Assembly: GCA_028868375.1 (NCBI GenBank)
Contig: JAGWUP010000008.1
Span: 4,751-68,750, forward strand
Length of the DNA stretch: 64,000 bases
From: Elusimicrobiota bacterium
Lineage (GTDB): Bacteria; Elusimicrobiota; Elusimicrobia; UBA1565; UBA9628
Reading direction: 5' to 3'
Both the position numbers and the translations under genes were made by a program. Shown here piece after piece: positions 177 through 14,354 of the stretch (position 1 is its first letter; each line of letters opens with the position of its first letter). The notes below the pieces were generated by a model. The model did no database searches, had not been told where the DNA came from, and saw nothing but the letters and a program-made list of their open reading frames with translations.

Positions 177-3100
177 ATGAGCCACGATACCCCTCAGAGC
201 CTATCCCGAATCGCTTGGCTGGCCTGCGCGCTGCTCTTGGGCTTCGCCGCGCGGGCGAGGACGGCGCCCCCGCTGCCGCCGATGCACGCCTGGGCCGTCA
301 TCCACGCCGGGCCGCAGGTCTATTACGTGGACGCGGACAAGGACGGGGCGCGCTACCAGCGGATGCTCAAGCATCAGTTCGGCGGGCCGATCTCGCTGTA
401 CGTCGAGGAGCAGGAGACCGCTCAAGGCAAGCTGAAGACGGTCAAGGCCCCCTCTCATGCGGCGTTGTTCTGCGACGGAGCCGGCGACGATTGGGCCTGC
501 CGAATCGTCGTCAACAAGGGCTCCGGCGGCAACTTCAGCGTCTCGGTGAACATCAACGGCAAGCAGCCGGCGATCGCGCCGACGCTGCTGGCTCCTGCGG
601 AGCGCCGCCCGGAGGGCATCCAGAGGGCGGTTTGGGCCGTCGTCGTCAATTTGGGGCTAAAGGAAAAATACTGGGCGCGCGCGGCCGGGGTGCTGCAGCA
701 GGCGCTGGACCCGAAACGGAACAAGAACGCGGCGGGCTTGAGGGCGGCCGACGCCACCCAGATGTCCGCCTTGTTTAGCGGCATACTGGCCGATTTGGTC
801 AAGCCCGATTCCCCCGACAAGAAGATCGAGAAGAAGATGGTCCAGTACCTGATCGCCAATTCCCCCAAGGCCGCCGCGCCGCCGCGGCCGATCGTGCCCA
901 AGGCCCATGGAGCGCCGGTGGGGCCGGCCGCCGGCAAGCCCGAAGACAAGAAGAAAGCCGAGGACAACGCGATCAACACCCTGGCCTTATTGCTGAAGCA
1001 GCGGCAGCCGCAGGCCGACCTGGCCGGCCGGATCATGGCCTACCTTAAGGCGCCGCAGGGCGCGGCGGCCTTCATCGAGCTGCCCCAGGCGCGTCGCGAG
1101 GCGGGGCTTAAAATGCTGTCCGGCGCCGTGTCGGCTTGGGTGACGAGGGCGGCGAAGACCGCGCAGGGGCGTGGCAAGGAGGCGGGGCTCTACTACGTCC
1201 TGGGCGATTCGCCTAAGGCTTGGTTTGCCGGCCATCCGGTTCTCGACGCGCTCGCAAAGCCCAACGCCGCGCTCCCGGATTTCGACCGCAAGATGGCGAT
1301 CTTCACGGTGGGCGGGGCCAAGCGCGCCCCGGCCAACGCGGGGCCGTTCAAGGGCGACATGGCCTGGCCGGCCGCCATGCTCGAGACGGCGACGGAGTTC
1401 GCGCGGCAGGCGATCAACGACCGCAGGCTCGCCCCCCAGGTCAAGGCCAGCGTCGACACGCACGACCAGGGCCTGCCGGTGCCGGGAGGCCCCGGCGCTC
1501 CGGGCGGCGGACTCAAGCGCGGTTTCAGCGCGCGCGGCTTCAACGTCGCGGACCTCTACGAGAAGGGCGGCGTAACGCAATTTTGGAATATCGATGGCAC
1601 CGAGCCGCCGAAGCATTTGATCTCGATACGCGTCTACTCGAAGGTCTCCAGTTGGGGCCCGCCGCCGCGGATTAGCGATCGCATCGGCATCTTCGACATA
1701 AACCCCGATGAGTTCAAGCACCCCAGCCCGGTCCACCACCTTGTCGGCCAATACTTCTCATTGAACCAGACCGGCGACTCCACATTCCAGTTGGGCAGCG
1801 GGAAGTCGGGCACCTTCAAGCTGAGCATGGGGGCCGACGAGTCGATCAGCCTGGTGCCGGTGGACTCCCAGTCCAAGGAGCCGATTTCCGATCCGCTGAC
1901 GACCAGCATTTCGGCGCTTTTCGCCGCGCGCAAAGGGCTGGCGGCCAGCGAGGGCTACTACGAGAAGATCAACGGCCAGGGCTTCCGCGTCATCGGGCAG
2001 GGCGGCGAGCGCGGCGCGCTGCTCTACTACGCGGTCGGCGCGGACGGCCGGCCCTTGAGCGACGACCCCTCCCTCATCGCCCAGGTCAACGAGGTCAGCG
2101 ACGGCCGCACCCAGCCCCTCTCCGGCGACCGCCCGCTGGGCTACGTCGGCATGAAGGCCGACGGCAAGACTCCGCAGGCCTACGGCTTGGCCTGGAACAA
2201 TGAGACCAAGACCTTCGATCCCAAGGAGATCGACTCGGACGCCCTGGGCGATGCGCCGGGCGCCAGCAGCACGACGGTGGCCTCCAGCGACGGGGCGCCG
2301 GCGGACAAGGGGACCACCGCCGACACCGACGACGACAAGGGCGGCGCCGGCAAGGCCGGCGGCGGCAAGGCCAAGAAGGAGGAGGCCGGCAACGGCGCCG
2401 ACGTCGGCGGCGAGCTGGCGCATTGCGACTACAAGGAGAAGCCGACGGACTATCCAGACGCCGTCTGGTACCACAAGCCGGCGGCGGGCTGGGGCCACGG
2501 TTGGCAATTCTACACGCCGCAGGTGCCGCTAAATCCCAAGACGAATGCAGTCGACTATACGATGGCCAACGCCACCTATATCTGCGTCTACGGCAAGTAC
2601 ATGCTCTTCCTCTCCCAAGGCTTGGTCGCGGACGGCGACATCTCGGTGGAAGGCGACAAGGATATCCTGGACATCCGGACGGCGGTGCCCGACGCCGACA
2701 TCAAGACCAAGAATCTTTTCATCAAGCCCGAGCTGCTGCAGAAAGGCCTGAAGGTGGAGGGGCGCACGCTGGTCTACGGTGGCGGCCTCCGAAGGCCGAT
2801 CACAAGCACTGTCGTGCCATCAACGGAATACTTCATTAAATTGCGCGATCTTAAGAAGCTGCTGCAGCTTTGGGGAGACCGGAGCAGCGTGTTCGCCGCG
2901 GGAGTCAAGAAGGTGGCATGGGTCAGCCGCAACCGCGAGTGGGAGAGCGCCGAGGCATCGGAGGCCTTCACGGTCTATTGGCGGCCGCAGGAGACTCGGC
3001 AGGAAGCGCTGGCGGACATCACCGAAGCGCTTAAGAAATTCATCCCGCATGTAGCGGATGAGAACTACTGCCTAAAGGACGGCAGCCTCCGGCCGGAGCT

Positions 3101-3344
3101 GGCCGATTACCTAGACGACGTGCTGAAAAATCCCGGGGCGAAGAAATGGCTCAACGTTCAGGACAGTTCGCAGAAAGACGATCCTGGCTTCACGCCCCCG
3201 TCCGTTGCCTTCCACTGTTTGAATACTAATGATAGTGCCGACTGGTGGGTTGTGGCGTCCGCCCCGCCCAGTTGGAAGCACATCGGGAGATTGAAGGCGG
3301 TTCCCCAGGATGACGGCACGACGATCCTTAAAACGGCGCCTTGA
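177..3344 (+). CDS. hypothetical large secreted protein (1055 aa), no recognisable catalytic motif
   Basis: Single uninterrupted 3.2-kb ORF. N-terminal signal-peptide-like segment (LSRIAWLACALLLGFAARA). Coding-like composition. The C-terminal 600 nt is lower in GC than the surrounding sequence. Confidence 0.6.
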   Translation: MSHDTPQSLSRIAWLACALLLGFAARARTAPPLPPMHAWAVIHAGPQVYYVDADKDGARYQRMLKHQFGGPISLYVEEQETAQGKLKTVKAPSHAALFCDGAGDDWACRIVVNKGSGGNFSVSVNINGKQPAIAPTLLAPAERRPEGIQRAVWAVVVNLGLKEKYWARAAGVLQQALDPKRNKNAAGLRAADATQMSALFSGILADLVKPDSPDKKIEKKMVQYLIANSPKAAAPPRPIVPKAHGAPVGPAAGKPEDKKKAEDNAINTLALLLKQRQPQADLAGRIMAYLKAPQGAAAFIELPQARREAGLKMLSGAVSAWVTRAAKTAQGRGKEAGLYYVLGDSPKAWFAGHPVLDALAKPNAALPDFDRKMAIFTVGGAKRAPANAGPFKGDMAWPAAMLETATEFARQAINDRRLAPQVKASVDTHDQGLPVPGGPGAPGGGLKRGFSARGFNVADLYEKGGVTQFWNIDGTEPPKHLISIRVYSKVSSWGPPPRISDRIGIFDINPDEFKHPSPVHHLVGQYFSLNQTGDSTFQLGSGKSGTFKLSMGADESISLVPVDSQSKEPISDPLTTSISALFAARKGLAASEGYYEKINGQGFRVIGQGGERGALLYYAVGADGRPLSDDPSLIAQVNEVSDGRTQPLSGDRPLGYVGMKADGKTPQAYGLAWNNETKTFDPKEIDSDALGDAPGASSTTVASSDGAPADKGTTADTDDDKGGAGKAGGGKAKKEEAGNGADVGGELAHCDYKEKPTDYPDAVWYHKPAAGWGHGWQFYTPQVPLNPKTNAVDYTMANATYICVYGKYMLFLSQGLVADGDISVEGDKDILDIRTAVPDADIKTKNLFIKPELLQKGLKVEGRTLVYGGGLRRPITSTVVPSTEYFIKLRDLKKLLQLWGDRSSVFAAGVKKVAWVSRNREWESAEASEAFTVYWRPQETRQEALADITEALKKFIPHVADENYCLKDGSLRPELADYLDDVLKNPGAKKWLNVQDSSQKDDPGFTPPSVAFHCLNTNDSADWWVVASAPPSWKHIGRLKAVPQDDGTTILKTAP

Positions 3345-3408: not shown

Positions 3409-6400
3409 ATGGCCGAGGGCCATCCGGCCTGTTACACTCGCTGCATGAAGGCGGCGCTCTGCCTGATCCTGTCGGCGGCCCTGATCCTTTCTTCCGGGGG
3501 GACGTCGCTGCTGGCCAAGCCGGTCACGCACTGGGATCCTCTCTACAGGCGGCTGCGAGTCAGCGACGACGGCGCCTCCACGCCGATCGCGCGCGTCGCC
3601 CGGATGATCGAGCATCTGCCGCCCAAGCTGAGGGCCGCGGCGCTTCAGATCGGCGGAGATCAGAGGCTGTCGCAGGCGGAGCGCGAGCGCGCGCTCGCAT
3701 TTTTGGTGCGCTATCGCCCGGCCCTGGCCGGCGACCAGAAGGCCGCCAAGGAGATCGACGCCACCCTCCACGACTTGCGCGACCCGGAGATCGATCCCGG
3801 CTTGACCTTGGCGCGGATGTTCGATCATCTCTCGCGGACGGCCCGGATGGCCGAGAGGGATCGCACCGACGTGCAGTGGGAGGGGGACCCGAGTCATGAG
3901 GCGACCGCTGTCGTCTCCAATTCCCTGATCGGCAATACGACGTTCATCCAGCATACGGTGCGCAAGGACGCGGACAACTCGATCCGCACGATCACGCGGC
4001 CGGCCGATCCCGACGATCCCTCCTCGCCGCAGCAGTTGGAGGCCGTCGTCTTGGAGCAGAGGCGGGGCGCCGACACCTTGCAGCGGGTCTGCTACAACCG
4101 CCGCATCCACGTGCTGCTGCGCAACCTGCGCAAGCTCTACTACGACCAGTGCTCCCTGGTGCGCCGCGTCAACAACGGGGAGCTGCTGCTGCAAGACACC
4201 CCCTGCCAGGACGCCAAGGGCTGGCGCGACGAGAAGCTGACGCCGGAGGTCCGGCGCAAGCTGCAGGCCTTCTACGACGGCAACCGGCGGCGCTTCCCGC
4301 CGGAGCTGCTGGATTACCTGGACTACCTCGACCGCATGGAGAAGCAGGGCCGGCTGGGCAACCTGCGCGACTGGCGCAAGCTGCAGAGCATGCAGCGCCT
4401 GGCCCTGGCCTTCTACAACGACAACCAGCTCCAGGTCTACCAGCGCGCGGTGATCATGGAGATCACCAATTATTTCTCGCAGTTGACAGGGGTGCAGCCC
4501 AAGCAGAAGCGGGGCGAGGAGATGCTGGACATCGGCGCGCGCAAGCTGGAGGATTTCCAGCGCCTGCTCGATCAGTTCCACAAGGGGCGCATGGAGGGCT
4601 ACTCAAGCTGGCTGGCCGAGCTGGGATTCTCCAAGCTCGACATCAAGAACCGCCGCGACGCCACCAGCCAGGCCATGGACATCGTCTCCGAGGCCTTCGC
4701 CGACGTGGCCTACGCCTACCAGGCCCAGCAGCGCCTGCTGGACCCGGACGCCGAGCTCTCCGGAGCGGAGCGCGACGCCGCCATCGCCGAGACCAGCCAG
4801 TGGCTGCAGCTGGCGCAAATCCAGGTGACGCGCTTCGAGATGCTGACGGAGTCCACCAGCCTGGACCATCTGGCCGCCGGCACCCTGCGCGGCATCGGCA
4901 TCCAGCGCTACGACGAGCAGATGAAGGGCCAGGCCCGCAGGCTGGCCAGCGCCGCGCGCCGGCAGTACTACCCGGCCATCGCCCAGGCCAGCCGGCAGGC
5001 CAAGCGGGAGCTGCTGCGCCAGACGGTCTCGGAGCTCTTCACGACCTTCAACGCCGCCTCCACCTCCTGGCAGTTCCGCCGCCCGCTGAGAGAGAAGCTG
5101 CGGCTGTTGGCGGCCAAGGCCGACCAGTTGCTGCAGCTCTACCTCTCGGCGCAGTTCGAGGCGGCGCGGGACAACCCCTCCTTCCAGCGCGACTTCACCG
5201 AGTCGCAGCGCGTGGAGGGCAGCGAGTACGCTTATTTCCTAAGCCATCTGCCCGCCAACTGCCGGCATGTCCGGGAGCTGGTGTCCTCCCTTAAGGAGGG
5301 GCTGCTGGCCCTGCTCAAGGAGCGGGAGGTCGGCTCCGTCCGGCAGGGCTTGGCTCCCCTGCGCGCGCGCTTTGCCGCCGTCGCGCGCGCCATCTTCGGC
5401 GACGGGGACATCCCGACGCCGCTGCAGATACAGCGCGAGTCCCAGGCCCTCTCCGTGCGGCAGGGCCGGCTCTTCGCCGCGGCCGCCCAGTTCGCCAACA
5501 AGATGCGGCTGTTCGACGCCATCAACGAGCTGGACATCTACGTCGACAAGTACGCGGACAACACGAAGTGGCTGCAGACCGAGAACGACGGCTTTTGGAC
5601 CCAGTTGACCAGCTTCCAGTGGCTTAACTACGCCTTCGGGAAGGTCCCCGGGCGCGAGGCCGCCGCCGACGCGATGCTTCGCAACGCGCACATCGATGCC
5701 ACCCTGCCGCTGCTGGGCGAGGTCCGCGTCGACTACAGGCGCGCCTTCGAGGAGCTTCGGGGCCATCCCGAGCGCCGCTTCAAGATCGACCAGGCCCTGC
5801 GCGAGGGGCGCTTCGACGACGCCTACCGGCTGGTGGCCAAGATCGATCCCGAGGGCGCGCAAAAGGCCGAGAAGGAGGCGCGGCTGGACAAGCTCGACGA
5901 GGACCCCGCCGACCTGCTCGATTTGGACGGCCTGATGAGCCATCAATATCAGGACACCGCCCAGACCCGGGCCTTGGGCAGCATCCAGGGCGCCTTCGTG
6001 CAGTTGCCGAAGCTCATCACCGGCTACGCCCTCGCCACGGCCGTCACCGACACCGTGATCAGCGCGGTGGCCTCGGCGGCGATCATGCCGGTGGCGCCGG
6101 TCTTGTTGGGCGGCCTGGGCGAGGCGACCCTCGGCGTCGGCAGGTTCGTCGAGCTCGTTCCGGCTTTGGACGAGACCGCCTCCGTCGGCCGCATGACGCG
6201 GATTATCCACGGCATCGCCAGCCTTTTCAACGCCGGGAGCTGGGCGGTGGAGTATCCCGGAAAGGTGATGATCTCCACGGCGCGCACGGCCCGCAAGGCC
6301 ATCGGCATGGCGGCTCCCCTGGAGGAGCGCAGCGCCTGGGTCCAGGCCGCCGCGATGTACTTGCCGGGCAGCGGGCTCTACGCCAACGTCGCCTGCGCCT

Positions 6401-9400
6401 CCATCGGCAGCACGGCGATCATGGGCCTGGTCTCGGGGGGGATGAGCGCCTTCACCTACGCCAGGGATCCCGAAACCTCGCGCTACGAGAACGCCGGGGA
6501 GGCCTTCATGCAGGGCCTGGCCCTGGGAGCCTCCTTCGGCTCCAAGGCCGGCATCATCACCCATATCAACCTGGTTCCCGTCTCCGCCTTTCGCGGGTGG
6601 GTCGGCGCCACGATGCGGACCGTCGCCGAGACCCCCGGGCCGGTCAGCCTGGGACTGCAGACCCTGGCCAAGGTGGTCCCGGGCTGGTCCAAGTCGATGC
6701 TGGCCGAGGCGGGGCCGCTGGGCGCCCTCTCCAACGGCGCCTTGGCCCTCAACCCCGTCCTCTACACCCTCGGCAAGGCGGCCGTCTGGGGCGGGGCGAT
6801 GATCGACGGCACCGTCAAGTACATCGGCATCGCCTGGCTGCCGCAGCAATTGGCCCAGGTCGGCATCATGCTGACGGGGCAGTTCAAGGACGCCCATGGC
6901 CACCGCGACGCGACGCTCGAGACGGAGGCGGGCGACACCGCCTTCATGGAGCGCCTGTCCGCGGCCCAGCAGTTCAGCACGAGCTTGGCCCAGTTAAGCT
7001 GGGTGCTGATGCCCTCCAACCCGGCCTTCAGCCACAAGGAGATCTCCGACCAGTCCCGAGCGGCGGCCGCCTTCAACCGAATCGCCCAGGACCCGGAACT
7101 GCTCCGCGTCGTCGAGTCGGCGCCGAAGGACTTCGCCATGCCGGTGGAGCTGCCCTTCTATTACCGCTCCCTGGGCGAGAACGCCCGCGCCGTCCTCGGC
7201 GCCGTTCCGCTGCTGGGCCGGGTCTTGGAGGAGCTGGGCCTGCGCAAGCCGGCCTCCACCGTCGAGTTCCAGGTCACCGAGCAGTGGCGGCAATTGGCCG
7301 CGCGGGAGAGGATGAGGAGGCGATTTAGCACCGCCGAGATCATGGCGATGGCGCTCATGCCCTCGGAGGCGGTCGGCCGGCTATTGGAGCGCTCGCGTCT
7401 GGGAGAGGTCCTGCGCGACCGCAAGGCCTTCATCGAGGAGTCCCTGGCCGACAAGGGCCCGCGCCGCGCGGGCGAGGACGGCCGGCCGCTGATCCTCACC
7501 CCCGCCACCCGCGATCCCGTCGACGTCCGGGTGTTCCGCTACCGCGATCCGGCCACCGGGCGCTGGCGGGACGCCCGGGAGGGTGAGGTCCGCCTGGTCT
7601 GCGCCGCGCCGGTGCCGCTGGGCCAGGCCAGGGGCCGCGATATCCTGGAGGTCGTCGATCCGCAGACCGGACACTGGGTGCCGGCGGGCACACCCGGCTC
7701 TCCCGCGGCGATGGTCCTTCCTTCGGCCAGGCCCGACCAGGTCCGCGTCACCAACGAGGCGATCATGGCGGCGCGCGACGAGCTGTCGGCGCGCTTGCGC
7801 GGGCGTTCCTGGCTGAAGAGGGCTTGGGACGGCCTGCTCGGCCGCGAGGTCTTAGACGGCGCGGCCTTGCGCGGCGAAATCCTCCTCTCCGAAGACGCGC
7901 TGGACTTGGGCAACGGCTGGCAACTCTCCGGCGAGCGGCTGGCGGACTTAAAGAAGGAGGCCGCCTTGGTCCAGCTCGACGCGATGCCGGCCACGCGCAA
8001 CCCGATCGCCTGGGCCCGCGACATGGTCCAGCGCGGCTTCGACACGGTGTTTAGGGGCCGCAAGCTGGAAAGCCAGCAGCAGCGCTGGATGCGCGGGCTG
8101 CGCCCGCAGGTGGAGGCCGACGCCAGGCGCCTGGCCGAGTCCGAGAAGGGCAGCCTGGGCGCGGTGCGCGAGCAGATCCTCGATCTGCTGGGCAAAAACG
8201 ACGACGGCGGCGACATCCTGACCGACGCCGGGGATCGCGCCGTCCTCCAAAGGGCGCTGGACGTCCTGGGCGGCCGCGGCCGCCTTTCCGACCGCCTGGA
8301 AAGCGCCGCTGTCCTGCTCGATGAGGCCGCCGCGCGCAAGGGGCAGGAGAAGGCCGGCCTGCCGCCGAACGCCTTCGCCAGCCTCTCGCGCTCACTGCGC
8401 GGCGAGGTCACCGCCGACTTGCTGATGACGGCCGCCCGCCGCCGCCTTCAGCGCCGCATCGACGCGGCGGGGCCGCTGGACCGCGCGGCCCTGGAGGCCC
8501 TGCGTCAGCCCCTGGAGACCGACGCGGCGCGCCAGGTCGTCATCGCGGAGATGCTCAGGACCTTCGGCCGCGACCGCCTGGCCGCCCGGGATGGGGAGCT
8601 GGACTCTGCCTCGGCGCGCGAGGGCGGCGAGCTCGACCGGGCCCTGGACCTTTACATGGACGTCTGGGAGCGCGCCGTCTTGGGCCAGATGGCCGGCGAG
8701 CGCGTCGCCGCGGTCAAGAACGGCCGCGATGTCCTCGAGTGGAGCATCCCGGCCCGGCGGCAGTTCAAGAATCGTTTCGGGGCGACCATCGGGGAGTTTC
8801 GCGCCTTGCAGAAGCGGGTGATCAAGGAGACCTTGGGCTTCTTCGCCGGCGGCTCGACCCTGGTCTTCGGCGCCATGCCCACCGGCTCCGGAAAGACGCT
8901 GACCAACTGCGTGCTGGCGGAGTTCCTAGACACCATGGCCCGCTCCCGGGGCCGCGACGGCGTGATCTATCTGACCACCAACCCCGACCTCGTCGCCCAG
9001 GCCTACGAGGACTACGTCGGCTTCTTCGGCAAGAAGCCGCCCTTCGAGATCATGACCTACAGCGACCTGTCCGCGCGCGTGGCCCAGGCCAAGGAGCAGG
9101 GCCTGCCCTCGCCGCTGGAGCGCAATTATCTGATCGGCGACGAGGGCGACGCCCCGGCCGGCCAGGTGCCGACCTCGGTGGGCGTCTTCAACGGCCGCAT
9201 GAGCAAGGCCCGCATCGATCCGGTGCAGCAGGCGATGCAGGGCGTCGCACGGCGCTTCGCCGACGGCGACCCCGCCTTCTGGGCCGAGGCGCGCGCCGCC
9301 CACGGCCTGGGCGGCGAGGGGCCGGTGGAGGGGCCGCGGTACGAGGAATTGATGAAGGACGAGGCCTTCCGGCAGCGCATCCTGGAGGGCGAGGGCGGGG

Positions 9401-11196
9401 GCTTCCGGCGCCTGCAGGCCCACTACGGCCTGACCGGGGTGATCGACAAGGATGCCTTCAGGAGGCTTAAGAAGAACGAGGCCTTCATGCGCGACTTCGA
9501 GGATTACGTCCAGGAGGCGGCCGAGGCCATCCGGGAGGCCGCCGTGACCTTGCGCAGCAAGAGCTTCCGCGACGGCATAGACCTGACCCAGTATCCCGAC
9601 TATTACGCCATGGCCGGGGGGGACGCCCAATTGGCCCGGCGCCGCTTGCAGGACCGGATGATCGAGGAATATGATCATATGGTGGCTTCCGCCAAGGCGC
9701 TGCACGGCAGCCTGGAAGGGCGCATGAGGATGTTCCTGGAAGGCGGCATGGAGTTCGCAAGCCTTCCCGAGCGCTCCAAGAAGATCGTTCCCGATCCGGA
9801 CGTCGAGCGGGACGTCTTGAACTTCAACAACGGCATCGCCTACGACAACTTGAGCACGCCGGTCGGCCCCTTCGGCTCCGCCTACTTCGGCCGCAACATC
9901 TCCAACGAGTTCGAGTCGGCCGGGCAGCTCAACTTCGCCCAGTTGATCGAGGAGGCCGTGGCCAACAAGGCGGTCTTCTTCTTGACTTCGGGGACCTGCC
10001 CCTTGAAGGTCCGCGAGCTTTTCCAGGGGCGCTACAGGGCCAAGTTCACCGGGGAGGTCTCGATTCCCGATCCCTTCGAGCCGCGCCTGGCCACCGGGGA
10101 GCTGGCCCAGGTGCTCGACATCGACGCCAAGATCGCGGACGCCAGGGCCGGCGAGCTGCAGATACAGTACGTCCACACCCTGCCGGAGCAGCAGGAGGTC
10201 CTGCGCTTGCTGGAGGAGCGCGGCGTCGACATGAGCCGCGTCTCGGTGCTGGTGCGGCCCGCCTCGGCCCTCGAGAAGCAGGAGCGCCTGGACATGGGGG
10301 TGCGCGCCGAGGCCAACGCAGAGGGCTTCAAGGGCCACAACGTGGACTTCGTCCTGCTGGTCGGGGCCGCCGGCCTGCGCGGCCTGGAGATGAACCTGAA
10401 GGACTACGCCGGGCGCTCCGCGCGCATGGACATACTCGACCCCCAGGAGCTCGACACGGGCAGCTTGACGCAGCTGATCGGCCGCCTAAGCCGCGGCCGC
10501 GCCTGGATGCTCAATGTGCGGCGCTTCACCAGCGTCACCCGCCTGGAGCGCCTGGAGCGCTCCGTCATCCTGCCGCAGGCGGCTGGGGATCTGGCCGGCC
10601 TGGTGGCGGAGGCGGCGTCTGACCGTTCCCCGACCGTCCAGGAAGCCGCGCTCAGGCTCTCGCAATCCATTCGCGCGGACTCGCCGGTCAATCCCATGTC
10701 GGTGACGCCGCAGGACATCATCGAGGCCGTGCAGCGGCACGACGCGGACACGCAGCGCTTCCTGCGCGCCGCCGAGGAGGGGAGGGGCGAGGGCTTCGTC
10801 GCCCAGCGCAACGATCTCTACGACCGCATCCTGCTGCCCATGCTCAAGAATCCCAATCTACCCACGCGGATCACGCGCTACCTGGATTTGATCTCCGAGG
10901 TCGGCCTGCTGCGCCGGGGCTTGAGCTCCCGGCAGCTGGAGTCTGTCCTCGGCGCCTCCGACCCATCGGCCGCGGCGATCCGGCTGTTCAGCGACCCGGC
11001 CGTCCTCTCCCAGCCGGGAGTGCTCGACGTGCTCATCGCCAGCCTCGGGCGCCGCGAGCAGGACCTGGCCATACAGTCCTCGGGCATCCTCGACGAGAGC
11101 AGGCCCTCCGCCCAAAACGGCCCGACGCTGGGCAAGCTGCTGCGGCCCGGCGGCTTGCGGGCCGTGACGCCGCGGGCCCTTCCCGGCCTTCCGTGA
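3409..11196 (+). CDS. giant protein (2595 aa): signal peptide, long helical N-terminal region, hydrophobic/Gly-rich core, embedded SF2 DEAD-box-like helicase core
   Basis: 7.8-kb ORF. An alternative start at ATG 3445 (MKAALCLILSAALILSSGGTSLLA) gives a cleaner signal peptide. Hydrophobic segments lie around aa 880-1200. Helicase motif I is AMPTGSGKT (8872-8898), motif II is LIGDEGDA (9139-9150), motif V-like is VGAAGLRGLEM, and motif VI is QLIGRLSRGR (10471-10500). Confidence 0.7.
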   Translation: MAEGHPACYTRCMKAALCLILSAALILSSGGTSLLAKPVTHWDPLYRRLRVSDDGASTPIARVARMIEHLPPKLRAAALQIGGDQRLSQAERERALAFLVRYRPALAGDQKAAKEIDATLHDLRDPEIDPGLTLARMFDHLSRTARMAERDRTDVQWEGDPSHEATAVVSNSLIGNTTFIQHTVRKDADNSIRTITRPADPDDPSSPQQLEAVVLEQRRGADTLQRVCYNRRIHVLLRNLRKLYYDQCSLVRRVNNGELLLQDTPCQDAKGWRDEKLTPEVRRKLQAFYDGNRRRFPPELLDYLDYLDRMEKQGRLGNLRDWRKLQSMQRLALAFYNDNQLQVYQRAVIMEITNYFSQLTGVQPKQKRGEEMLDIGARKLEDFQRLLDQFHKGRMEGYSSWLAELGFSKLDIKNRRDATSQAMDIVSEAFADVAYAYQAQQRLLDPDAELSGAERDAAIAETSQWLQLAQIQVTRFEMLTESTSLDHLAAGTLRGIGIQRYDEQMKGQARRLASAARRQYYPAIAQASRQAKRELLRQTVSELFTTFNAASTSWQFRRPLREKLRLLAAKADQLLQLYLSAQFEAARDNPSFQRDFTESQRVEGSEYAYFLSHLPANCRHVRELVSSLKEGLLALLKEREVGSVRQGLAPLRARFAAVARAIFGDGDIPTPLQIQRESQALSVRQGRLFAAAAQFANKMRLFDAINELDIYVDKYADNTKWLQTENDGFWTQLTSFQWLNYAFGKVPGREAAADAMLRNAHIDATLPLLGEVRVDYRRAFEELRGHPERRFKIDQALREGRFDDAYRLVAKIDPEGAQKAEKEARLDKLDEDPADLLDLDGLMSHQYQDTAQTRALGSIQGAFVQLPKLITGYALATAVTDTVISAVASAAIMPVAPVLLGGLGEATLGVGRFVELVPALDETASVGRMTRIIHGIASLFNAGSWAVEYPGKVMISTARTARKAIGMAAPLEERSAWVQAAAMYLPGSGLYANVACASIGSTAIMGLVSGGMSAFTYARDPETSRYENAGEAFMQGLALGASFGSKAGIITHINLVPVSAFRGWVGATMRTVAETPGPVSLGLQTLAKVVPGWSKSMLAEAGPLGALSNGALALNPVLYTLGKAAVWGGAMIDGTVKYIGIAWLPQQLAQVGIMLTGQFKDAHGHRDATLETEAGDTAFMERLSAAQQFSTSLAQLSWVLMPSNPAFSHKEISDQSRAAAAFNRIAQDPELLRVVESAPKDFAMPVELPFYYRSLGENARAVLGAVPLLGRVLEELGLRKPASTVEFQVTEQWRQLAARERMRRRFSTAEIMAMALMPSEAVGRLLERSRLGEVLRDRKAFIEESLADKGPRRAGEDGRPLILTPATRDPVDVRVFRYRDPATGRWRDAREGEVRLVCAAPVPLGQARGRDILEVVDPQTGHWVPAGTPGSPAAMVLPSARPDQVRVTNEAIMAARDELSARLRGRSWLKRAWDGLLGREVLDGAALRGEILLSEDALDLGNGWQLSGERLADLKKEAALVQLDAMPATRNPIAWARDMVQRGFDTVFRGRKLESQQQRWMRGLRPQVEADARRLAESEKGSLGAVREQILDLLGKNDDGGDILTDAGDRAVLQRALDVLGGRGRLSDRLESAAVLLDEAAARKGQEKAGLPPNAFASLSRSLRGEVTADLLMTAARRRLQRRIDAAGPLDRAALEALRQPLETDAARQVVIAEMLRTFGRDRLAARDGELDSASAREGGELDRALDLYMDVWERAVLGQMAGERVAAVKNGRDVLEWSIPARRQFKNRFGATIGEFRALQKRVIKETLGFFAGGSTLVFGAMPTGSGKTLTNCVLAEFLDTMARSRGRDGVIYLTTNPDLVAQAYEDYVGFFGKKPPFEIMTYSDLSARVAQAKEQGLPSPLERNYLIGDEGDAPAGQVPTSVGVFNGRMSKARIDPVQQAMQGVARRFADGDPAFWAEARAAHGLGGEGPVEGPRYEELMKDEAFRQRILEGEGGGFRRLQAHYGLTGVIDKDAFRRLKKNEAFMRDFEDYVQEAAEAIREAAVTLRSKSFRDGIDLTQYPDYYAMAGGDAQLARRRLQDRMIEEYDHMVASAKALHGSLEGRMRMFLEGGMEFASLPERSKKIVPDPDVERDVLNFNNGIAYDNLSTPVGPFGSAYFGRNISNEFESAGQLNFAQLIEEAVANKAVFFLTSGTCPLKVRELFQGRYRAKFTGEVSIPDPFEPRLATGELAQVLDIDAKIADARAGELQIQYVHTLPEQQEVLRLLEERGVDMSRVSVLVRPASALEKQERLDMGVRAEANAEGFKGHNVDFVLLVGAAGLRGLEMNLKDYAGRSARMDILDPQELDTGSLTQLIGRLSRGRAWMLNVRRFTSVTRLERLERSVILPQAAGDLAGLVAEAASDRSPTVQEAALRLSQSIRADSPVNPMSVTPQDIIEAVQRHDADTQRFLRAAEEGRGEGFVAQRNDLYDRILLPMLKNPNLPTRITRYLDLISEVGLLRRGLSSRQLESVLGASDPSAAAIRLFSDPAVLSQPGVLDVLIASLGRREQDLAIQSSGILDESRPSAQNGPTLGKLLRPGGLRAVTPRALPGLP

Positions 11197-12929
11197 GCGC
11201 GGCCGCCGCGCTGCTGGCGCTGCTCTACGCGGGGCTGATGGCCGACGGCTTGCGCCCGGATTGGGCCTGGGCCGTCGGCGGATTGTGGCTGGGCGGCTGC
11301 CTGTGGGCTTGCCGGCGCCGAAGCGCCCGTCCGCTGGCGGTCTGGCTGCCTTATCTGGCCTGGGCGCTGCTGTCCGCCGCGGCTTGCGGGGGCAGGCTGG
11401 CCGGCCTTGGCGCCCTCTCGCGCTGGGCCGGGGCGCTGGCCTTCTACGCCGCGGCCGTGACCTTGTGGCGGCCGCGCCACCGGCGCCGGTGGCTTAAGAT
11501 CTTGCTCCTGGCCGGGCCGCTGCTGGGCTTGGCCGCCCTGGCCACCGGCTGGACCCAGGTGCGGGTCTACGGCTCCGGAGAGTCGATGACGGGTTTTCTG
11601 CCGCCCTATTACAACTACACCTGCTTCGTCCTGGCGGCTTGCGGCGCGGCCGCCTTGGGGGCATTGGGCGGCGAGGCGGAGGCCGGCGGCTTGCTCGCCC
11701 GCCCGGCCTTGGGGGTCGTCGCCGGGCTCTGCGCGTCCTTGCTGGTGGTGGCGCGCGCCCGCTCGGCGCTCTTGGGGCTTCTGGCCGGCGCGGTCGTGGC
11801 GGCCTACCGCCAGCATAGCGGCCGCGTCCTCAAGCTGGCCGCGGCCCTGTTGGGCGGCAGCGCCGTGGTCTTTACGGCCGCGATGATGGCCCTGCACGTC
11901 AGCGGCCCGCTCTTGATGCTCAAGCTCGACAAGGCCAAGGCGTTCAAGCGGCCCCAGTTGTGGCTGGCGGCCGCCCAGGTGATCGCCGACCATCCCGTCC
12001 TAGGCGAGGGGCCGGGGCAGTTCGAGAGCGGCTTCCGGCGCCATGTCTTTGCGGCCGGCTACGGGGTGGCGCGCTACCGCTTCACGACGGCCTACGCCCA
12101 CAGCGAGCCGCTGCAGTTGGCGGCCGACACGGGCCTGGTCGGCGCAGTACTCTGGGCCGGCGGTTTGTGGGCCAGCCTGGGTCCGGCCGGCGCCTCTCTA
12201 GAGGCCCAGGCGGCCGTGGCGGCCGCGGCGGCGATGACGGTGCCGCTGGCCTTCGACAATATGCTGCAATTGCCGGCGCTGGCCTTCCTGTTCTTCTCGG
12301 CTCTGGCCGTGGGATTTTCCGACGAGCGCCGGCAAGAGGATCGCGCGGCCCCGCGCGGTTGGGCCGCCGCGGCCCTCTTGGTCGGCGTCCTGGCCCTGGC
12401 GGCCGCGGCGGCCGCCCGCGTCCGCGTGGAGCTTTCCAAGGAGTCCGGGCCGCCGGCCGCGCGGCTTGCGCGCGCGCGCCGCCGGGAGGACTTATGGCCG
12501 CGCGACCCGGGGGGCTTTCAGGCGCAGGCCCGAGCGGACATGGGCATGCGCCCCGCGCGCGTCGAGGAGGCCTTGTCGGCGCTGCGGCGGGCCTCGGCCC
12601 TGGCCCCCTACGACGCCTTCGTCCTGGTCTGGGGCGCCGAGCTTCAGCGCGCCCGCGGGGCCTGGCCGCAGGCGCGGAAGCTGGCCTTGCGCGCGCTGGA
12701 GCTGGAGCCGGATTTTCTCCAGGCGCGGCTCTTGCTGGCGGAATCCCTGCTCAGGCAGCGCCCGGCTGCGGCGCGAGCCGAGCTTTCGGAGCTGGAGCGC
12801 CGCCGCGCCGCGCTGCGCGCGGAGGGCCTCTACGGCCCGGAGCGCTCGCGCTTCACCGACTACGACCGCCAATTGGGCTCGCTCGACCAACGGCGCGAGG
12901 CCCTTCTTCGGGCAGCGCTTCATTCGTGA
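11193..12929 (+). CDS. O-antigen ligase family (Wzy_C / WaaL / PglL-like) polytopic membrane protein with C-terminal TPR-like repeats
   Basis: About 10 predicted TM helices. Large loop with TAYAHSEPLQLAADTGLVGAVLW (a Wzy_C-like H/E/R loop). C-terminal LALRALELEPDFLQARLLLAESLL TPR-like helices. The GTG start overlaps the TGA of the giant gene (GTGA). Confidence 0.6.
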   Translation: MSAAAALLALLYAGLMADGLRPDWAWAVGGLWLGGCLWACRRRSARPLAVWLPYLAWALLSAAACGGRLAGLGALSRWAGALAFYAAAVTLWRPRHRRRWLKILLLAGPLLGLAALATGWTQVRVYGSGESMTGFLPPYYNYTCFVLAACGAAALGALGGEAEAGGLLARPALGVVAGLCASLLVVARARSALLGLLAGAVVAAYRQHSGRVLKLAAALLGGSAVVFTAAMMALHVSGPLLMLKLDKAKAFKRPQLWLAAAQVIADHPVLGEGPGQFESGFRRHVFAAGYGVARYRFTTAYAHSEPLQLAADTGLVGAVLWAGGLWASLGPAGASLEAQAAVAAAAAMTVPLAFDNMLQLPALAFLFFSALAVGFSDERRQEDRAAPRGWAAAALLVGVLALAAAAAARVRVELSKESGPPAARLARARRREDLWPRDPGGFQAQARADMGMRPARVEEALSALRRASALAPYDAFVLVWGAELQRARGAWPQARKLALRALELEPDFLQARLLLAESLLRQRPAAARAELSELERRRAALRAEGLYGPERSRFTDYDRQLGSLDQRREALLRAALHS

Positions 12930-12964: not shown

Positions 12965-13990
12965 GTGGAACAGTTGGCGCGGGTCCGCCGCCGCATCGCC
13001 ACGCTGCTGGGAGTGATCCTCGCCGTCCTGGCCGGCGGGGCGGCGGGCTACCATTTCCTGGAGGGCTGGCCGTGGCTGGACGCGGTCTACATGACCGTCA
13101 TCACGCTGGGGACGGTCGGCTACGAGGAGACCCATCCGCTCTCCAGCGGCGGGCGGGTGTTCACGATGCTGCTGATCTTGGGCGGCATCGCCCTGATGAC
13201 CTACGCCTTCTCGACGATCACCGCGATCATCGTCGAGGGAGAGCTTGCCGGGGCGTTGAAACGGAGGCGCATGCAAAAGGAGATCGGCCGCTTGTCCGGC
13301 CACTACATCGTCTGCGGCAGCGGGCATGCCGCGGGCGTGATCGGCTCGGAGCTGCTGCACACCCGCAGGGAGTTCGTCGTCATCGACGTCGACCAGGAGG
13401 CCCTGCGCCGCTTCTCGGAGCGCCTCGGCGCCGGGCGCTATTTCACGGTGGAGGGCGACGCCGCCGCCGACGAGACCCTGCGCGCGGCCGGCGTGGCGCG
13501 CGCGGCCGGGATTTTCGCCGTCCTGCCCCGAGACCAGGACAACGCCTTCGTGGCCCTTTCGGCCAAGGGCTTGAATCCCGGCATCCGGGTGGTCAGCGCG
13601 CAGAAGGAGCTGGGGGTGCGCGAGCAGTTGCTGCGCAGCGGGGCCGACCGCGTCGTCAATCCCGAGTACATCGGGGGCTTGCGGATGGTCTCCGAGATGA
13701 TCCGCCCCGCGACCGTGGGATTTTTGGACGCGATGATCCGCGAGCGCGGCCAGACCGTCCGCTTCGAGGAGGTCGGCGTGCCAAGCGGCTCGCCCTTCGT
13801 CGGCCGCCCCTTGGAGGCCCTGCGGGCCGCGGCGGCCGGCCCGCTGTTGGTGGCCCTGCAGCCCGCCGGAAGCGGCTCCTACGAGATCAATCCGCCTTCC
13901 TCCAGGCCGATCGCCGCCGGCGACGCCCTGGTGCTGCTGGGAGAGATCGGGCAGCTCGAGGCCCTGCGCCGCGGCGTGGGGGGACTTTAA
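12965..13990 (+). CDS. two-TM potassium-channel family protein with a C-terminal RCK/TrkA-N domain (MthK/Kch-like); selectivity filter is TVGYE
   Basis: TM1-pore-TM2 layout with TVITLGTVGYEETHP (filter codons 13112-13126). Rossmann motif IVCGSGHAAGVIGSEL follows. GTG start. Confidence 0.75.
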   Translation: MEQLARVRRRIATLLGVILAVLAGGAAGYHFLEGWPWLDAVYMTVITLGTVGYEETHPLSSGGRVFTMLLILGGIALMTYAFSTITAIIVEGELAGALKRRRMQKEIGRLSGHYIVCGSGHAAGVIGSELLHTRREFVVIDVDQEALRRFSERLGAGRYFTVEGDAAADETLRAAGVARAAGIFAVLPRDQDNAFVALSAKGLNPGIRVVSAQKELGVREQLLRSGADRVVNPEYIGGLRMVSEMIRPATVGFLDAMIRERGQTVRFEEVGVPSGSPFVGRPLEALRAAAAGPLLVALQPAGSGSYEINPPSSRPIAAGDALVLLGEIGQLEALRRGVGGL

Positions 13991-14130: not shown

Positions 14131-14349
14131 GGCGCTGCCACGCAATAACATGAACATTCTGGAGGCCCGAGCTTGAGACGATTTCAAGGCGCGAAGAGAG
14201 GGCATGGCGGTAGTCATGCGGGCGATGAGCAACGCGGAAATCGGCCAACCTCGGGCTTCCCCACAGAGCCGGGCCGTTTTTGGGCTGCGCCTTCGTCGCC
14301 CCGCTCCAAAATCGCGCACGGCAGAGCGACCATCTTATTGCGTGGCAGC
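14131..14349. repeat. ~219-bp element bounded by a perfect 18-bp inverted repeat (GGCGCTGCCACGCAATAA ... TTATTGCGTGGCAGCGCC); MITE-like or structured-RNA element
   Basis: Arms at 14131-14148 and 14332-14349 are exact reverse complements. The interior is lower in GC. The right arm ends 5 nt before the transposase-like ATG. A related element is at 58934-59153. Confidence 0.5.
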
Positions 14350-14354
14350 GCCTA

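Follow-up and report, generated by a model that had tools for sequence, protein, structure and literature searches.

Related motor proteins and giant proteins

SF2 motors are almost always soluble cytoplasmic proteins, and SecA represents the one well-known case in which such a motor handles proteins at the membrane; its preprotein cross-linking domain is an alpha/beta domain. UvrB and the ResIII helicases T4 UvsW, XPB and DinG act on DNA in the cytoplasm as soluble proteins with a length of 400-700 aa, and among the polymorphic toxins (CdiA and similar proteins) we know of none that contains an SF2 motor. Reports on Omnitrophota and actinobacteria describe giant proteins that possess membrane anchors and, C-terminal to these, a divergent SecA-type motor, and it has been proposed that they export themselves (West-Roberts et al., bioRxiv 10.1101/2023.11.21.568195); giants of these groups with a divergent SecA_DEAD domain are also described in 10.64898/2026.06.07.730766.

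The 64,000 nucleotides of Elusimicrobiota DNA analysed here (the window) encode a protein that shares several traits with these giants, namely its great length, predicted extracytoplasmic regions and anchors, a C-terminal motor of SecA-like layout in which the SecA scaffold and wing were not identified, and the co-existence with other giant proteins. To say that it resembles nothing known would therefore be too strong. However, the Omnitrophota and actinobacterial giants have lengths between 10,000 and over 30,000 aa, contain many recognisable enzymatic and adhesion domains and match the Pfam SecA_DEAD and preprotein-binding domains, whereas the present family of 2,000-3,400 aa from Elusimicrobiota has ResIII as its sole recognisable domain, does not match these SecA profiles and is encoded in a fixed multi-gene cluster.

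Our preferred explanation, to which we assign a probability of roughly 0.4, is that the giant protein is the N-out, C-in subunit of an Elusimicrobiota-specific envelope machine with a cytoplasmic motor, for which the reported giants provide a precedent. An SF2 motor in permanent fusion with a membrane-active core and an exported domain, conserved throughout a largely uncultured phylum and within a fixed gene cluster, would represent a new motor arrangement and, if the motor powers export or delivery, a new protein translocation or contact-dependent competition system. With its 2.6k residues the protein may also serve as an entry point to the far larger Omnitrophota giants with SecA-like domains.

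The giant gene and its relatives

The open reading frame of 2,595 codons reported before exists and represents a real gene.

3409..11196, + strand: giant ATPase gene with 2,595 codons when counted from its first ATG
11194-11196, + strand: its stop codon TGA, overlapping the GTG start of the next gene

The probable start is the second ATG at position 3445 (M13), where the homologues and the NCBI protein begin, resulting in a protein of 2,583 aa that is identical to the NCBI protein P0001 (2,583 aa). This entry is named [quoted passage not shown], and a relative (P0007) carries the same family label, which is misleading.

An exhaustive search revealed 91 relatives, mostly of 2,000-3,400 aa, and every named one belongs to the Elusimicrobiota. 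They follow a common plan consisting of a signal-like N-terminus, an N-domain with a Cys pair, a low-charge core, a linker, an SF2 motor with a variable helical insertion, the SSGI motif and a variable tail. No description of this family was found in the literature searched. No PADLOC defence model matched the giant protein at E-values up to 0.1 and it matches no standard toxin family, in line with the earlier statement that it is neither a standard toxin nor a known defence helicase.

The fusion of two or more genes by an assembly or gene-calling error, a possibility raised by the earlier note, has a negligible probability because independently assembled sequences (NCBI, ENA, JGI, Logan) contain full-length homologues with the same collinear layout, five of them close and about 45 distant, including P0002, P0003, P0004 and the locus L004. 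No observation in favour of such an error was made. The comparison of the giant with the locus L001, which yields a single tblastn HSP of 2,672 columns, likewise speaks against this artefact, and the conservation across assemblies refutes it.

The SF2 ATPase module

8626..10608, + strand: SF2 ATPase module (aa 1740-2400), starting with an N-terminal extension specific to the family, followed by RecA lobe 1 with the helical insertion and by RecA lobe 2
8872..8898, + strand: motif I (Walker A) AMPTGSGKT, aa 1822-1830; G-K invariant, T nearly so
8971..9000, + strand: motif Ia-like LTTNPDLVAQ; T, L and Q invariant
9139..9150, + strand: motif II (Walker B) DEGD, aa 1911-1914; D-E invariant, second D nearly so
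9208..9900, + strand: helices inserted into lobe 1 after motif II and before motif III (about aa 1934-2164), from the structure model
9988..9996, + strand: motif III SGT, aa 2194-2196; S-G-T nearly invariant
10354..10392, + strand: motif V LLVGAAGLRGLEM; R-G invariant
10471..10500, + strand: motif VI QLIGRLSRGR, aa 2355-2364, with the arginine fingers; Q, G, R and R invariant

Conservation of the motifs was judged on an alignment of 20 sequences with 18-52% identity, and the blocks bearing them are those still detectable across the 91 relatives. Two RecA-like lobes with the motifs I, Ia, II, III, V and VI in this order place the module in SF2. Recomputation from the translation showed that the coordinates of the motifs listed by the earlier note (I, Ia, II, V and VI) are all exact, while motif III was absent from its list. 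Motif II is followed by the conserved strand PTSVGVFNG. A conserved return segment, NFNNGIAYDNLST, leads into motif III, which belongs to conserved block 2 in the superfamily.

The order of a RecA1/RecA2 pair, as proposed previously, is thus present, but the spacing deviates from that of a plain pair because of the helical insertion, which makes up most of the approximately 230 residues between motifs II and III. The insertion corresponds to the helices H199-H378 of the AlphaFold2 model, which partly reach a pLDDT above 90. The gap between the blocks flanking it comprises 160 residues in the window protein and ranges from about 90-160 to more than 1,000 residues in the relatives. The invariant residues in motifs I, II, V and VI together with the nearly invariant motif III argue for an active ATPase, which would require a compartment holding ATP.

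The helicase motifs did not fail in profile searches, as Pfam ResIII (PF04851, cut-off 22.5) was matched with 28.5 bits by the whole protein, 31.1 bits by the domain and 43.7 bits by the family consensus as well as by five of five close homologues, the match spanning just the first ~95 of the 164 positions in the profile, which begin upstream of Walker A and extend through motif Ia. The conserved EFRxLQ upstream of the motifs is also of the ResIII type. The AlphaFold2 model of the ATPase domain (mean pLDDT 80.4) displays an SF2 fold. According to a Foldseek search with the whole module, UvrB (E 2.5e-7) and SecA/SecA2 were the best matches, SecA/SecA2 occupying 11 of the top 17 places, and the highest global TM-scores (0.43-0.45) were obtained for SecA bound to SecY. 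Helicase_C (PF00271, cut-off 23.5) gave nothing on the window protein and remained below the threshold on the family consensus (16.0-18.1 bits, around motif V) and on the relative P0030 (13.7 bits); despite this, lobe 2 has a RecA-like fold in the model. The N-lobe is ResIII-like (UvsW/XPB group), and the modelled layout of the whole module is closest to UvrB and SecA.

An assignment to the DEAD-box RNA helicases, as suggested by the previous description “DEAD-box-like”, was rejected. Pfam DEAD reached 18.5-21.0 bits at a cut-off of 26, motif II reads DEGD (DEYD, DEMD or DEAD in relatives), motif III SGT and motif VI QLIGRLSRGR, where DEAD-box helicases have D-E-A-D, S-A-T and HRxGRxGR, respectively, and a Q motif is lacking.

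Similar to SecA and SecA2, the module is a two-lobe SF2 motor. Its large lobe 1 insertion after motif II is located where SecA has the preprotein cross-linking domain, but insertions in lobe 1 are known from UvrB and DinG as well. By-eye reading furthermore suggests the shared patterns TGxGKTL, hhhTxNxxLAxxD, DExD with a conserved second strand, xSGTxx and GRGxDh. The module differs from SecA in several respects. No match to SecA_DEAD (PF07517) was obtained at E-values up to 10 with five close ATPase domains and the family consensus, nor at E-values up to 1 with four distant members, and the members searched and the consensus had no Pfam match to SecA_PP_bind or SecA_SW. In hhalign against E. 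coli SecA the probabilities were just 31%, where the motif Ia stretch pairs with SecA VHVVTVNDYLAQRDAE, and 12%, the alignments being confined to the stretch from Walker A to motif Ia. The insertion of the family is all-helical and variable in length, in contrast to the SecA cross-linking domain. None of the SecA helical scaffold, two-helix finger and wing was identified in the family, the tail having been compared by Pfam SecA_SW alone. Finally, the motor of the family is covalently fused to a signal-like N-terminus, an N-domain of 820 aa and a hydrophobic core, whereas that of SecA is not. Since SecA is a motor working at the cytoplasmic face of the membrane, the top TM-scores of SecA-SecY structures were counted in favour of a cytoplasmic motor.

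With UvrB and the ResIII helicases the module shares the best-matching profile, the Foldseek match and, in the case of UvrB and DinG, the presence of insertions in lobe 1. These enzymes differ by having neither a signal peptide nor a hydrophobic core nor an envelope context. A membrane-tethered DNA or RNA helicase or translocase of the ResIII/UvsW/XPB/UvrB kind, which would move or process nucleic acids at the envelope, for example in DNA uptake or export, appears improbable. Such a function would agree with ResIII, a family of nucleic acid enzymes, being the only significant Pfam match (DEAD and Helicase_C being below threshold) and with a match to a “DNA helicase” family in PHROGs (E 7.5e-4). 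However, the module has no recognisable FeS cluster or beta-hairpin, further accessory domains for handling DNA or binding nucleic acids were not detected, the SF2 fold matches do not distinguish between substrates, and the best global TM-scores belong to SecA chains.

N-terminus, N-domain and hydrophobic core

3445..3516, + strand: signal-peptide-like N-terminus MKAALCLILSAALILSSGGTSLLA, possible cleavage site before KP
3517..5988, + strand: conserved N-terminal domain, aa 37-860, the best-conserved part among five close homologues
4150-4152 and 4204-4206, + strand: Cys pair of the N-domain (YYDQC...C)
5992..7053, + strand: low-charge Gly/Ala/Ser/Thr-rich hydrophobic core, aa 862-1215, defined by composition
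7054..8625, + strand: charged linker of variable sequence, aa 1216-1739, showing little conservation and numerous indels in the alignments

The N-terminus (MKAALCLILSAALILSSGGTSLLA|KP) shows the n/h/c layout of a Sec signal peptide, the basic n-region, h-region and small-x-small motif being represented by MK, AALCLILSAALIL and SSGGTSLLA-KP, respectively. The segment reaches a Kyte-Doolittle 19-mer score of 1.95 and a summed Hessa dG of +0.4, and a comparable basic-then-hydrophobic stretch is found at the extreme N-terminus of at least 37 of the 49 full-length relatives. The signal peptide recognised earlier is thus upheld as a signal-like segment, which may function as a Sec-type signal. The following N-domain had no match in Pfam, NCBIfam or PDB. 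Its Cys pair is kept, swapped for another pair or lost as a pair among the relatives, which suggests a probable disulfide and hence an extracytoplasmic location of the N-domain.

The Gly/Ala-rich core, previously placed at about aa 880-1200 with a length of some 300 aa, was found at aa 862-1215. It consists of 27% Gly and Ala and contains merely 12.7% charged residues, compared to 24-31% in the other regions (31% in the linker); this low charge supports its location in the membrane. Some five segments of hydrophobic or amphipathic character are conserved in it, among them FGAK, DG..KY and SW.L.P, and it had no match in PDB. With a summed Hessa dG of about +3.5 kcal/mol, the strongest segment (aa 883-901, KD 2.06) is a marginal candidate for membrane insertion. 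The charges flanking the main hydrophobic segment show a weak bias in the expected direction (net +0.27 vs +1.0). In P0002 and P0003 no internal segment exceeds the hydrophobicity threshold used. In P0004, P0005 and P0010 the core contains one or two additional segments of strong hydrophobicity (P0010: dG +2.2), which likewise supports a membrane location. Those of P0004 form a hairpin-like pair (dG +1.2 and +2.5); as an even number, these two passes would not alter the overall topology.

According to our preferred explanation, the Sec-type signal would place the N-domain of approximately 820 residues outside the cytoplasm, the core (aa ~862-1215) would cross the inner membrane an odd number of times, and the C-terminal ~1,400 residues would remain in the cytoplasm. 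There the SF2 motor with its ResIII-like N-lobe and UvrB/SecA-like layout would hydrolyse ATP, and the large helical insertion in lobe 1 may serve as a substrate clamp. The motor could either pass its work to the membrane and periplasmic parts or drive a polymer through them, most likely a polypeptide such as the C-terminal tail of the giant itself or the neighbouring giant proteins. The paradox of a secreted protein with a cytoplasmic-type ATPase, as formulated in the earlier note, is not established, since an odd number of core passes would leave the motor in the cytoplasm. Against the N-out, C-in topology stand the finding that no core segment is clearly hydrophobic enough for Sec stop-transfer and the weakness of the bias in the flanking charges.

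The same hydrophobicity values bear on the main rival reading, according to which the protein is a wholly exported and delivered effector resembling polymorphic toxins. Of the two readings raised before, an ATP-driven envelope machine or an effector, both remain live, although we regard the effector as rather unlikely. In this scenario the signal would take the entire chain across the inner membrane and the neighbouring giants would bring it to the surface. The Gly/Ala-rich core would then insert into a target membrane like the translocation region of large clostridial toxins, and the SF2 ATPase and the tip would enter the target cytoplasm, where the motor, using the ATP of the target, may pull in the chain or act on nucleic acids. 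The conserved Sec-type N-terminus and the core segments below the usual stop-transfer hydrophobicity are consistent with such an export. However, the hydrophobic pair in P0004, the extra segment in P0010 and a tail segment in P0019 (dG +1.4) should arrest it, and to our knowledge no delivered toxin with an SF2 motor has been described, which we counted against the effector reading.

An ordinary cytoplasmic DEAD/DEAH helicase, as implied by the NCBI names of P0001 and P0007, with the N-terminal stretch forming a buried helix and the middle part a soluble low-complexity linker, is very improbable. The helicase-like module accounts for only about a quarter of the chain, and Pfam DEAD is below its cut-off. 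Furthermore, the basic-then-hydrophobic stretch lies at the extreme N-terminus in most relatives, the Cys residues of the N-domain co-vary as a pair, the core is strongly depleted of charge over 350 residues, and the neighbouring genes encode giants with export signals or membrane segments.

The C-terminal tail and the toxin-tipped form

10609..11193, + strand: C-terminal tail, aa 2401-2595, with the motif AIQSSGI followed by 35 aa ending in ALPGLP
11077-11088, + strand: SSGI, present as S-S-G-I/V in nearly all relatives

In most relatives, including the window protein, the SSGI motif is followed by a tail of 15-40 aa with a conserved ending. The variants following SSGI comprise short tails, often ending in PGL(E/D)xxR, hydrophobic hairpins, a CdiA_C toxin and an extension of 1,100 aa with an AAA_5 domain. 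Further hydrophobic segments C-terminal to the ATPase occur in at least eight relatives and would fit a membrane-tethered motor. Some tips consist of a hydrophobic tail rich in Gly and might represent membrane-active toxins.

One relative (P0093/P0014) is tipped with a CdiA_C toxin domain (Pfam E 5.3e-20), and its gene is directly followed by a SitI3 immunity gene and then a homologue of the 4,939-aa giant encoded in the window. The family resembles the polymorphic toxins in being very long, predictedly exported proteins with a conserved body and SSGI/SSSV before a variable tip. The toxin-immunity pair indicates that the C-terminus can carry a payload for another cell, which would be easier if the whole chain left the producer, and together with the variable and Gly-rich tips it speaks for the effector reading. 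On the other hand, the toxin-tipped form is so far known from two closely related MAG proteins only, and most members have a short conserved tail without a toxin domain and without an immunity-like gene thereafter. In the window protein no toxin domain was detected by Pfam in the 35 aa following SSGI, and the next gene encodes a Wzy_C/TPR protein instead of an immunity-like one. TPS, FHA, RHS, LXG or other known trafficking and repeat modules of polymorphic toxins were not found in the family. The toxin-tipped variant with its immunity gene offers a direct handle on delivery.

The gene cluster

177..3344, + strand: upstream partner, 1,055 aa, signal-peptide-like N-terminus, no known domain (Pfam)
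11193..12929, + strand: polytopic membrane protein with Wzy_C (O-antigen-ligase-like; Pfam E 2.3e-11) and C-terminal TPR
12965..13990, + strand: TrkA-type K+ channel (Pfam Ion_trans_2, TrkA_N and TrkA_C)
14355..15257, + strand: protein with Y1_Tnp (IS200-like HUH; Pfam E 2e-6) and DnaA_C-type helix-turn-helix (Bac_DnaA_C, E 1.7e-6)
15359..30178, + strand: downstream partner, 4,939-aa giant with hydrophobic N-terminus, its first 800 aa containing several strong membrane segments

The comparison of the genomic neighbourhoods revealed a cluster with giant envelope proteins that is conserved across loci. In every locus extending far enough the ATPase giant is located between an exported protein of ~1,050 aa and a membrane giant of ~5,000 aa, and it is often followed by the same genes for the Wzy_C/TPR protein, the K+ channel and the Y1_Tnp-HTH protein. 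In L001, L002, L004, L006 and L008 a homologue of the upstream partner directly precedes the ATPase giant. The start of the Wzy_C/TPR gene overlaps the stop codon of the giant gene (GTGA), as is also the case in L001 and L006/L007, so both genes may be translationally coupled. The K+ channel is 57-70% identical in L001, L002, L004 and L006 and is always encoded just downstream. Apart from its N-terminal membrane segments the 4,939-aa giant is long and rich in Ala, Leu and Arg, with a Pfam OEP match at aa 2846-2941 (24.7 bits, cut-off 22), and its homologues with 40-43% identity are encoded downstream in L002, L004, L008, L009 and L011.

This conserved cluster of giant proteins favours a machine over a lone enzyme. 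The export signals carried by all large partners would also suit an effector. As a more speculative and rather doubtful extension, we consider a phylum-specific, envelope-spanning translocation or attack machine composed of proteins of ~880 aa and ~1,050 aa, the motor protein of ~2,600 aa and the membrane giant of ~5,000 aa. Its motor subunit, in which a periplasmic domain and a membrane-inserting core are joined to a SecA/UvrB-like motor, would thread out its own C-terminal payload, which in some lineages would be a CdiA-type toxin accompanied by its immunity protein. Such a machine would constitute a new system for secretion or contact-dependent delivery.

A nucleic acid translocase might work together with the Y1_Tnp-HTH protein, whose gene is conserved in the cluster with 48-55% identity to the genes at the same position in L004, L008 and L009. 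However, the HUH motif lacks its first His in the copies of the window and of these three loci, which suggests that the protein is a regulator rather than a nuclease, and nothing else in the cluster points to DNA.

A search with the PADLOC defence models at E-values up to 0.1 gave no match for the 1,055-aa upstream protein, the Wzy_C/TPR protein, the open reading frame 14204-15226 and the 438-aa open reading frame at 30183. Long spurious open reading frames are common in DNA with a G+C content of 70%, that at 14204-15229 being an example.

Gene model and catalytic motifs

The open reading frame at 3409..11196 (+) comprises 2,595 codons without interruption and represents a real gene, though long open reading frames arising by chance are common at a G+C content such as that of the window (approximately 70%). 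A protein of 2,583 amino acids predicted from an Elusimicrobia metagenome-assembled genome in the NCBI database is identical to the product, which is referred to here as the ATPase giant. All full-length homologues, sharing 29-45% identity with it, start where the second ATG lies (3445), which makes this codon the likely start of the product, with the N-terminal sequence MKAALCLILSAALILSSGGTSLLAKP. Elsewhere the window contains ordinary chromosomal genes (glutamate dehydrogenase, glycerate kinase, murB, ftsQ, autotransporter).

The motif coordinates given in an earlier note on this DNA were all recomputed and proved to be exact; motif III had been missed.

Catalytic motifs of the ATPase giant
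8872-8898: motif I (Walker A), AMPTGSGKT, residues 1822-1830
9139-9150: motif II (Walker B), DEGD, residues 1911-1914
9988-9996: motif III, SGT
10471-10500: motif VI, QLIGRLSRGR, residues 2355-2364

A family of giant proteins in the Elusimicrobiota

A word-indexed protein search retrieved only four members of the family, and a fifth was found by scanning species-representative genomes. An exhaustive HMM search over 1.84 billion representatives was needed to expose the superfamily, which comprises 91 proteins, 67 of them detected at E <= 1e-10. Most of the full-length matches have a length of 2,000-3,400 aa, and all named matches belong to Elusimicrobia/Elusimicrobiota, their entries being annotated as 'hypothetical protein' or 'DEAD/DEAH box helicase family protein'. 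A scan of a metagenome contig collection revealed no further loci, and no paper describing the family was found in the literature searched. Since full-length relatives among the 91 proteins share the architecture, a fusion artefact of the assembly, which the earlier note had considered, can be ruled out. A basic and then hydrophobic N-terminus was detected in at least 37 of the 49 full-length members, and three blocks of the ATPase are conserved in the family.

Conserved ATPase blocks
Block 1: Walker A through DExD and the next strand
Block 2: return segment with SGT at its end
Block 3: motifs V and VI

Blocks 1 and 2 are separated by a stretch that varies from about 90-160 to more than 1,000 residues, and by 160 residues in the window protein.

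The ATPase module

The Pfam profile ResIII matched the ATPase giant at aa 1796-1879 with 28.5 bits (cut-off 22.5), the isolated ATPase domain with 31.1 bits and the consensus of 54 relatives with 43.7 bits (E 3.5e-11); all five close homologues were matched as well. The score of Pfam DEAD on the module remained under its cut-off, and Helicase_C reached only 16-18 bits on the family consensus. No match was found in NCBIfam, none of the PADLOC defence models matched, and PHROGs provided only a weak match to 'DNA helicase'. Sequence searches against the PDB using the ATPase domain, its profile, the family consensus and the profiles of the N-domain and the core returned nothing meaningful.

A first AlphaFold2 model, based on an alignment of three sequences, had a mean pLDDT of 50.7 and gave weak Foldseek matches. 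It was superseded by a second model using a 20-sequence alignment assembled after the exhaustive search (mean pLDDT 80.4, pTM 0.70), which consists of two alpha/beta lobes and a helical insertion. Foldseek aligned the whole module, with UvrB as the best match (E 2.5e-7), followed by SecA and SecA2 chains, which occupy 11 of the 17 top places; the best TM-scores (0.43-0.45) were obtained with SecA within SecA-SecY complexes.

The ResIII scores, the AlphaFold2 model and the Foldseek matches together identify the module as a genuine SF2 ATPase. The helicase motifs recognised in the earlier note thus withstand both profile and structure tests, but its description of the module as DEAD-box-like does not hold, Pfam DEAD being below cut-off. 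Judged by sequence the N-lobe is of the ResIII type. In the predicted structure lobe 1 has a large insertion, located after motif II and before motif III, and this overall layout comes closest to those of UvrB and SecA. The similarities to ResIII, UvsW and UvrB would also be in line with a motor acting on DNA or RNA at the membrane, a role that we regard as rather improbable.

A resemblance to SecA had been noticed at the level of the motifs and was hence tested. In hhalign comparisons with SecA of E. coli the probability was 31% for a three-sequence profile and 12% for a 54-sequence profile, both alignments being confined to the stretch from Walker A to motif Ia, and Pfam SecA_DEAD matched neither the members tested nor the family consensus. 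On sequence grounds the ATPase giant was therefore not assigned to the SecA family. It falls within the SF2 superfamily and, by the tests applied, outside both the DEAD-box and the SecA family; the resemblance to SecA stands only in predicted structure and architecture.

The closest described concept is that of the SecA_DEAD giants of Omnitrophota and Actinobacteria, which are known from genomics only (bioRxiv 10.1101/2023.11.21.568195). In contrast to these, the present family occurs in Elusimicrobiota, has a size of 2,000-3,400 aa, lacks the SecA signature and is located in a fixed gene cluster, occasionally with a toxin at its tip. A comparison with the gliding proteins of Mycoplasma mobile (Gli123/349/521), which was based solely on similar sizes and gene order, was dropped.

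N-domain, hydrophobic core and C-terminal tail

According to sequence inspection and hydropathy the N-terminus resembles a Sec signal peptide in its layout. In many of the relatives P0002-P0062 a Pro-Gly recurs after the N-terminal hydrophobic stretch (...LLLASPGGPGW, ...LVTGPGAQ, ...LILVGPGTPA), which may point to a signal that is specialised and differs from the generic Sec type.

The N-domain (aa 37-860) is the best-conserved region among close homologues and had no known match in Pfam, NCBIfam and PDB profile searches. It contains a pair of cysteines (YYDQC...18-20 aa...C) that in the relatives is kept, swapped for another pair or lost entirely. This behaviour as a pair suggests a disulfide and thus an extracytoplasmic location of the N-domain.

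The following hydrophobic core (aa 862-1215) contains 27% Gly+Ala and 12.7% charged residues, compared to 24-31% charged residues in the other regions, and about five conserved hydrophobic or amphipathic segments. None of these is robustly membrane-spanning on simple scales (best Kyte-Doolittle value 2.06, summed Hessa dG about +3.5 kcal/mol), and the topology measures (Kyte-Doolittle windows, summed Hessa dG, flank charges) gave marginal values. A charged, variable linker connects the core to the ATPase.

C-terminal of the ATPase lies a tail of about 190 residues with the family-wide motif AIQSSGI (EDQLRSSSV in distant members), followed in the window protein by a 35-residue end (...ALPGLP). 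The general form of this element, Q/L-x-S-S-G-I/V and then a short tail, is found at 11077-11193 (+) and at the C-termini of the relatives P0002-P0091, and may represent a docking, sorting or processing signal. The short tail is kept in most relatives including the window protein and often ends with PGL(E/D)xxR, in many distant members with (F/H)PGL(E/D)xxR at the extreme C-terminus.

Two relatives from Elusimicrobia metagenome-assembled genomes, P0014 and P0093 (L010:1-2976 and L011:27-6677), share the body plan of the window protein and are matched by the ATPase profile at E 2.5e-61. In both, SSG[IF] is followed by an Ala/Pro-rich linker and then by a toxin domain of the Pfam family CdiA_C (E 5.3e-20); directly 3' of the toxin-tipped relative follow a SitI3 immunity gene and a homologue of the 4,939-aa giant that is encoded downstream in the window. 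The tips of other relatives consist of Gly-rich hydrophobic hairpins or of a 1,100-aa extension with an AAA_5 domain. From these variants the C-terminal tip is therefore a position where payloads can be attached. The window protein itself is not a polymorphic toxin, since both a toxin domain and an immunity gene are lacking.

Conserved gene cluster

The neighbourhood comparison suggested in the earlier note revealed a gene order that is constant in all loci of sufficient length (L001, L002, L004, L006/7, L008, L009 and L011).

Gene cluster of the ATPase giant
Position 1: protein of ~880 aa
Position 2, 177-3344: protein of ~1,000-1,120 aa with a signal-peptide-like N-terminus
Position 3, 3409-11196 (+): ATPase giant
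Position 4 (closer loci only), 11193-12929 (+): Wzy_C (O-antigen-ligase-like) membrane protein with C-terminal TPR repeats; then 12965-13990 (+): TrkA-type K+ channel (Ion_trans_2, TrkA_N, TrkA_C)
Position 5, 14355-15257 (+): Y1_Tnp (IS200-like HUH) domain fused to a DnaA_C-type helix-turn-helix
Position 6, 15359-30178 (+): giant of >4,000 aa with a multi-pass N-terminal region, 4,939 aa in the window

Given this order, the ATPase giant belongs to a conserved system of several genes that encode export-signal and membrane giants. The GTG start of the Wzy_C/TPR gene overlaps the TGA stop of the ATPase giant (GTGA), as it does in L001 and L006. The Wzy_C/TPR protein also bears a weak NCBIfam likeness to exosortase-associated O-glycosylation ligases (E 0.0015, well short of the cut-off). 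No gene of the neighbourhood is better conserved than that of the TrkA-type channel (57-70% identity in four other loci), which always lies a short way downstream of the ATPase giant.

The Y1_Tnp gene shares 48-55% identity with its counterparts in L004, L008 and L009, which likewise lie between the ATPase giant and the giant of ~5,000 aa, and the HUH motif lacks its first His in all four copies. Rather than a mobile element, the product looks like a domesticated, possibly regulatory component of the cluster. ORF 14204-15229, which had been listed mechanically, was discarded as a spurious frame overlapping this gene. The 4,939-aa giant, which is better conserved than the ATPase giant (40-43% identity between loci), is hydrophobic at its N-terminus and carries several strong membrane segments in its first 800 residues, its long remainder being Ala/Leu/Arg-rich; it contains no Walker A motif and a single Pfam OEP (TolC-like) match at aa 2846-2941.

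Possible mode of action

Even very divergent family members retain intact catalytic motifs; the motor therefore presumably needs ATP and would thus work in a cytoplasm. We tentatively prefer, at a probability of about 0.4, the cytoplasm of the producer. The signal peptide would export the N-domain, the core would cross the inner membrane in an odd number of passes, and the motor would drive an envelope machine or thread a polypeptide outward, possibly the tail or payload of the protein itself or else the neighbouring giants. This arrangement is consistent with the SecA-like layout of the motor and with a hairpin-like pair of extra hydrophobic segments in the core of the relative P0004, whose even number of passes would leave the topology unaltered; extra segments were also detected in the cores of P0005 and P0010 and C-terminal of the ATPase in at least eight relatives. 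A precedent is given by the giants of Omnitrophota and Actinobacteria, in which membrane anchors are followed by SecA-type domains (bioRxiv 10.1101/2023.11.21.568195).

Alternatively, the whole chain may be exported and delivered into another cell, where the core would insert into the membrane and the motor would use the ATP of the target. The only weakly hydrophobic core and the existence of the toxin-immunity variant (CdiA_C and SitI3) point in this direction; we consider such a delivery less likely than a motor that stays in the producer.

Other genes of the window

45015-50927 (+): classical autotransporter of 1,970 aa with eight PATR repeats and a C-terminal beta-domain (E 2.7e-47)
34121-35458 (-): ORF of 444 aa with a sub-threshold eCIS_core match (E 0.013, 16.1 bits, cut-off 22)
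31905-33635 (-): signal-peptide protein of 575 aa with a Glucodextran_C (SLH-like) module

The classical autotransporter demonstrates that an outer membrane and type V secretion exist in the source organism.
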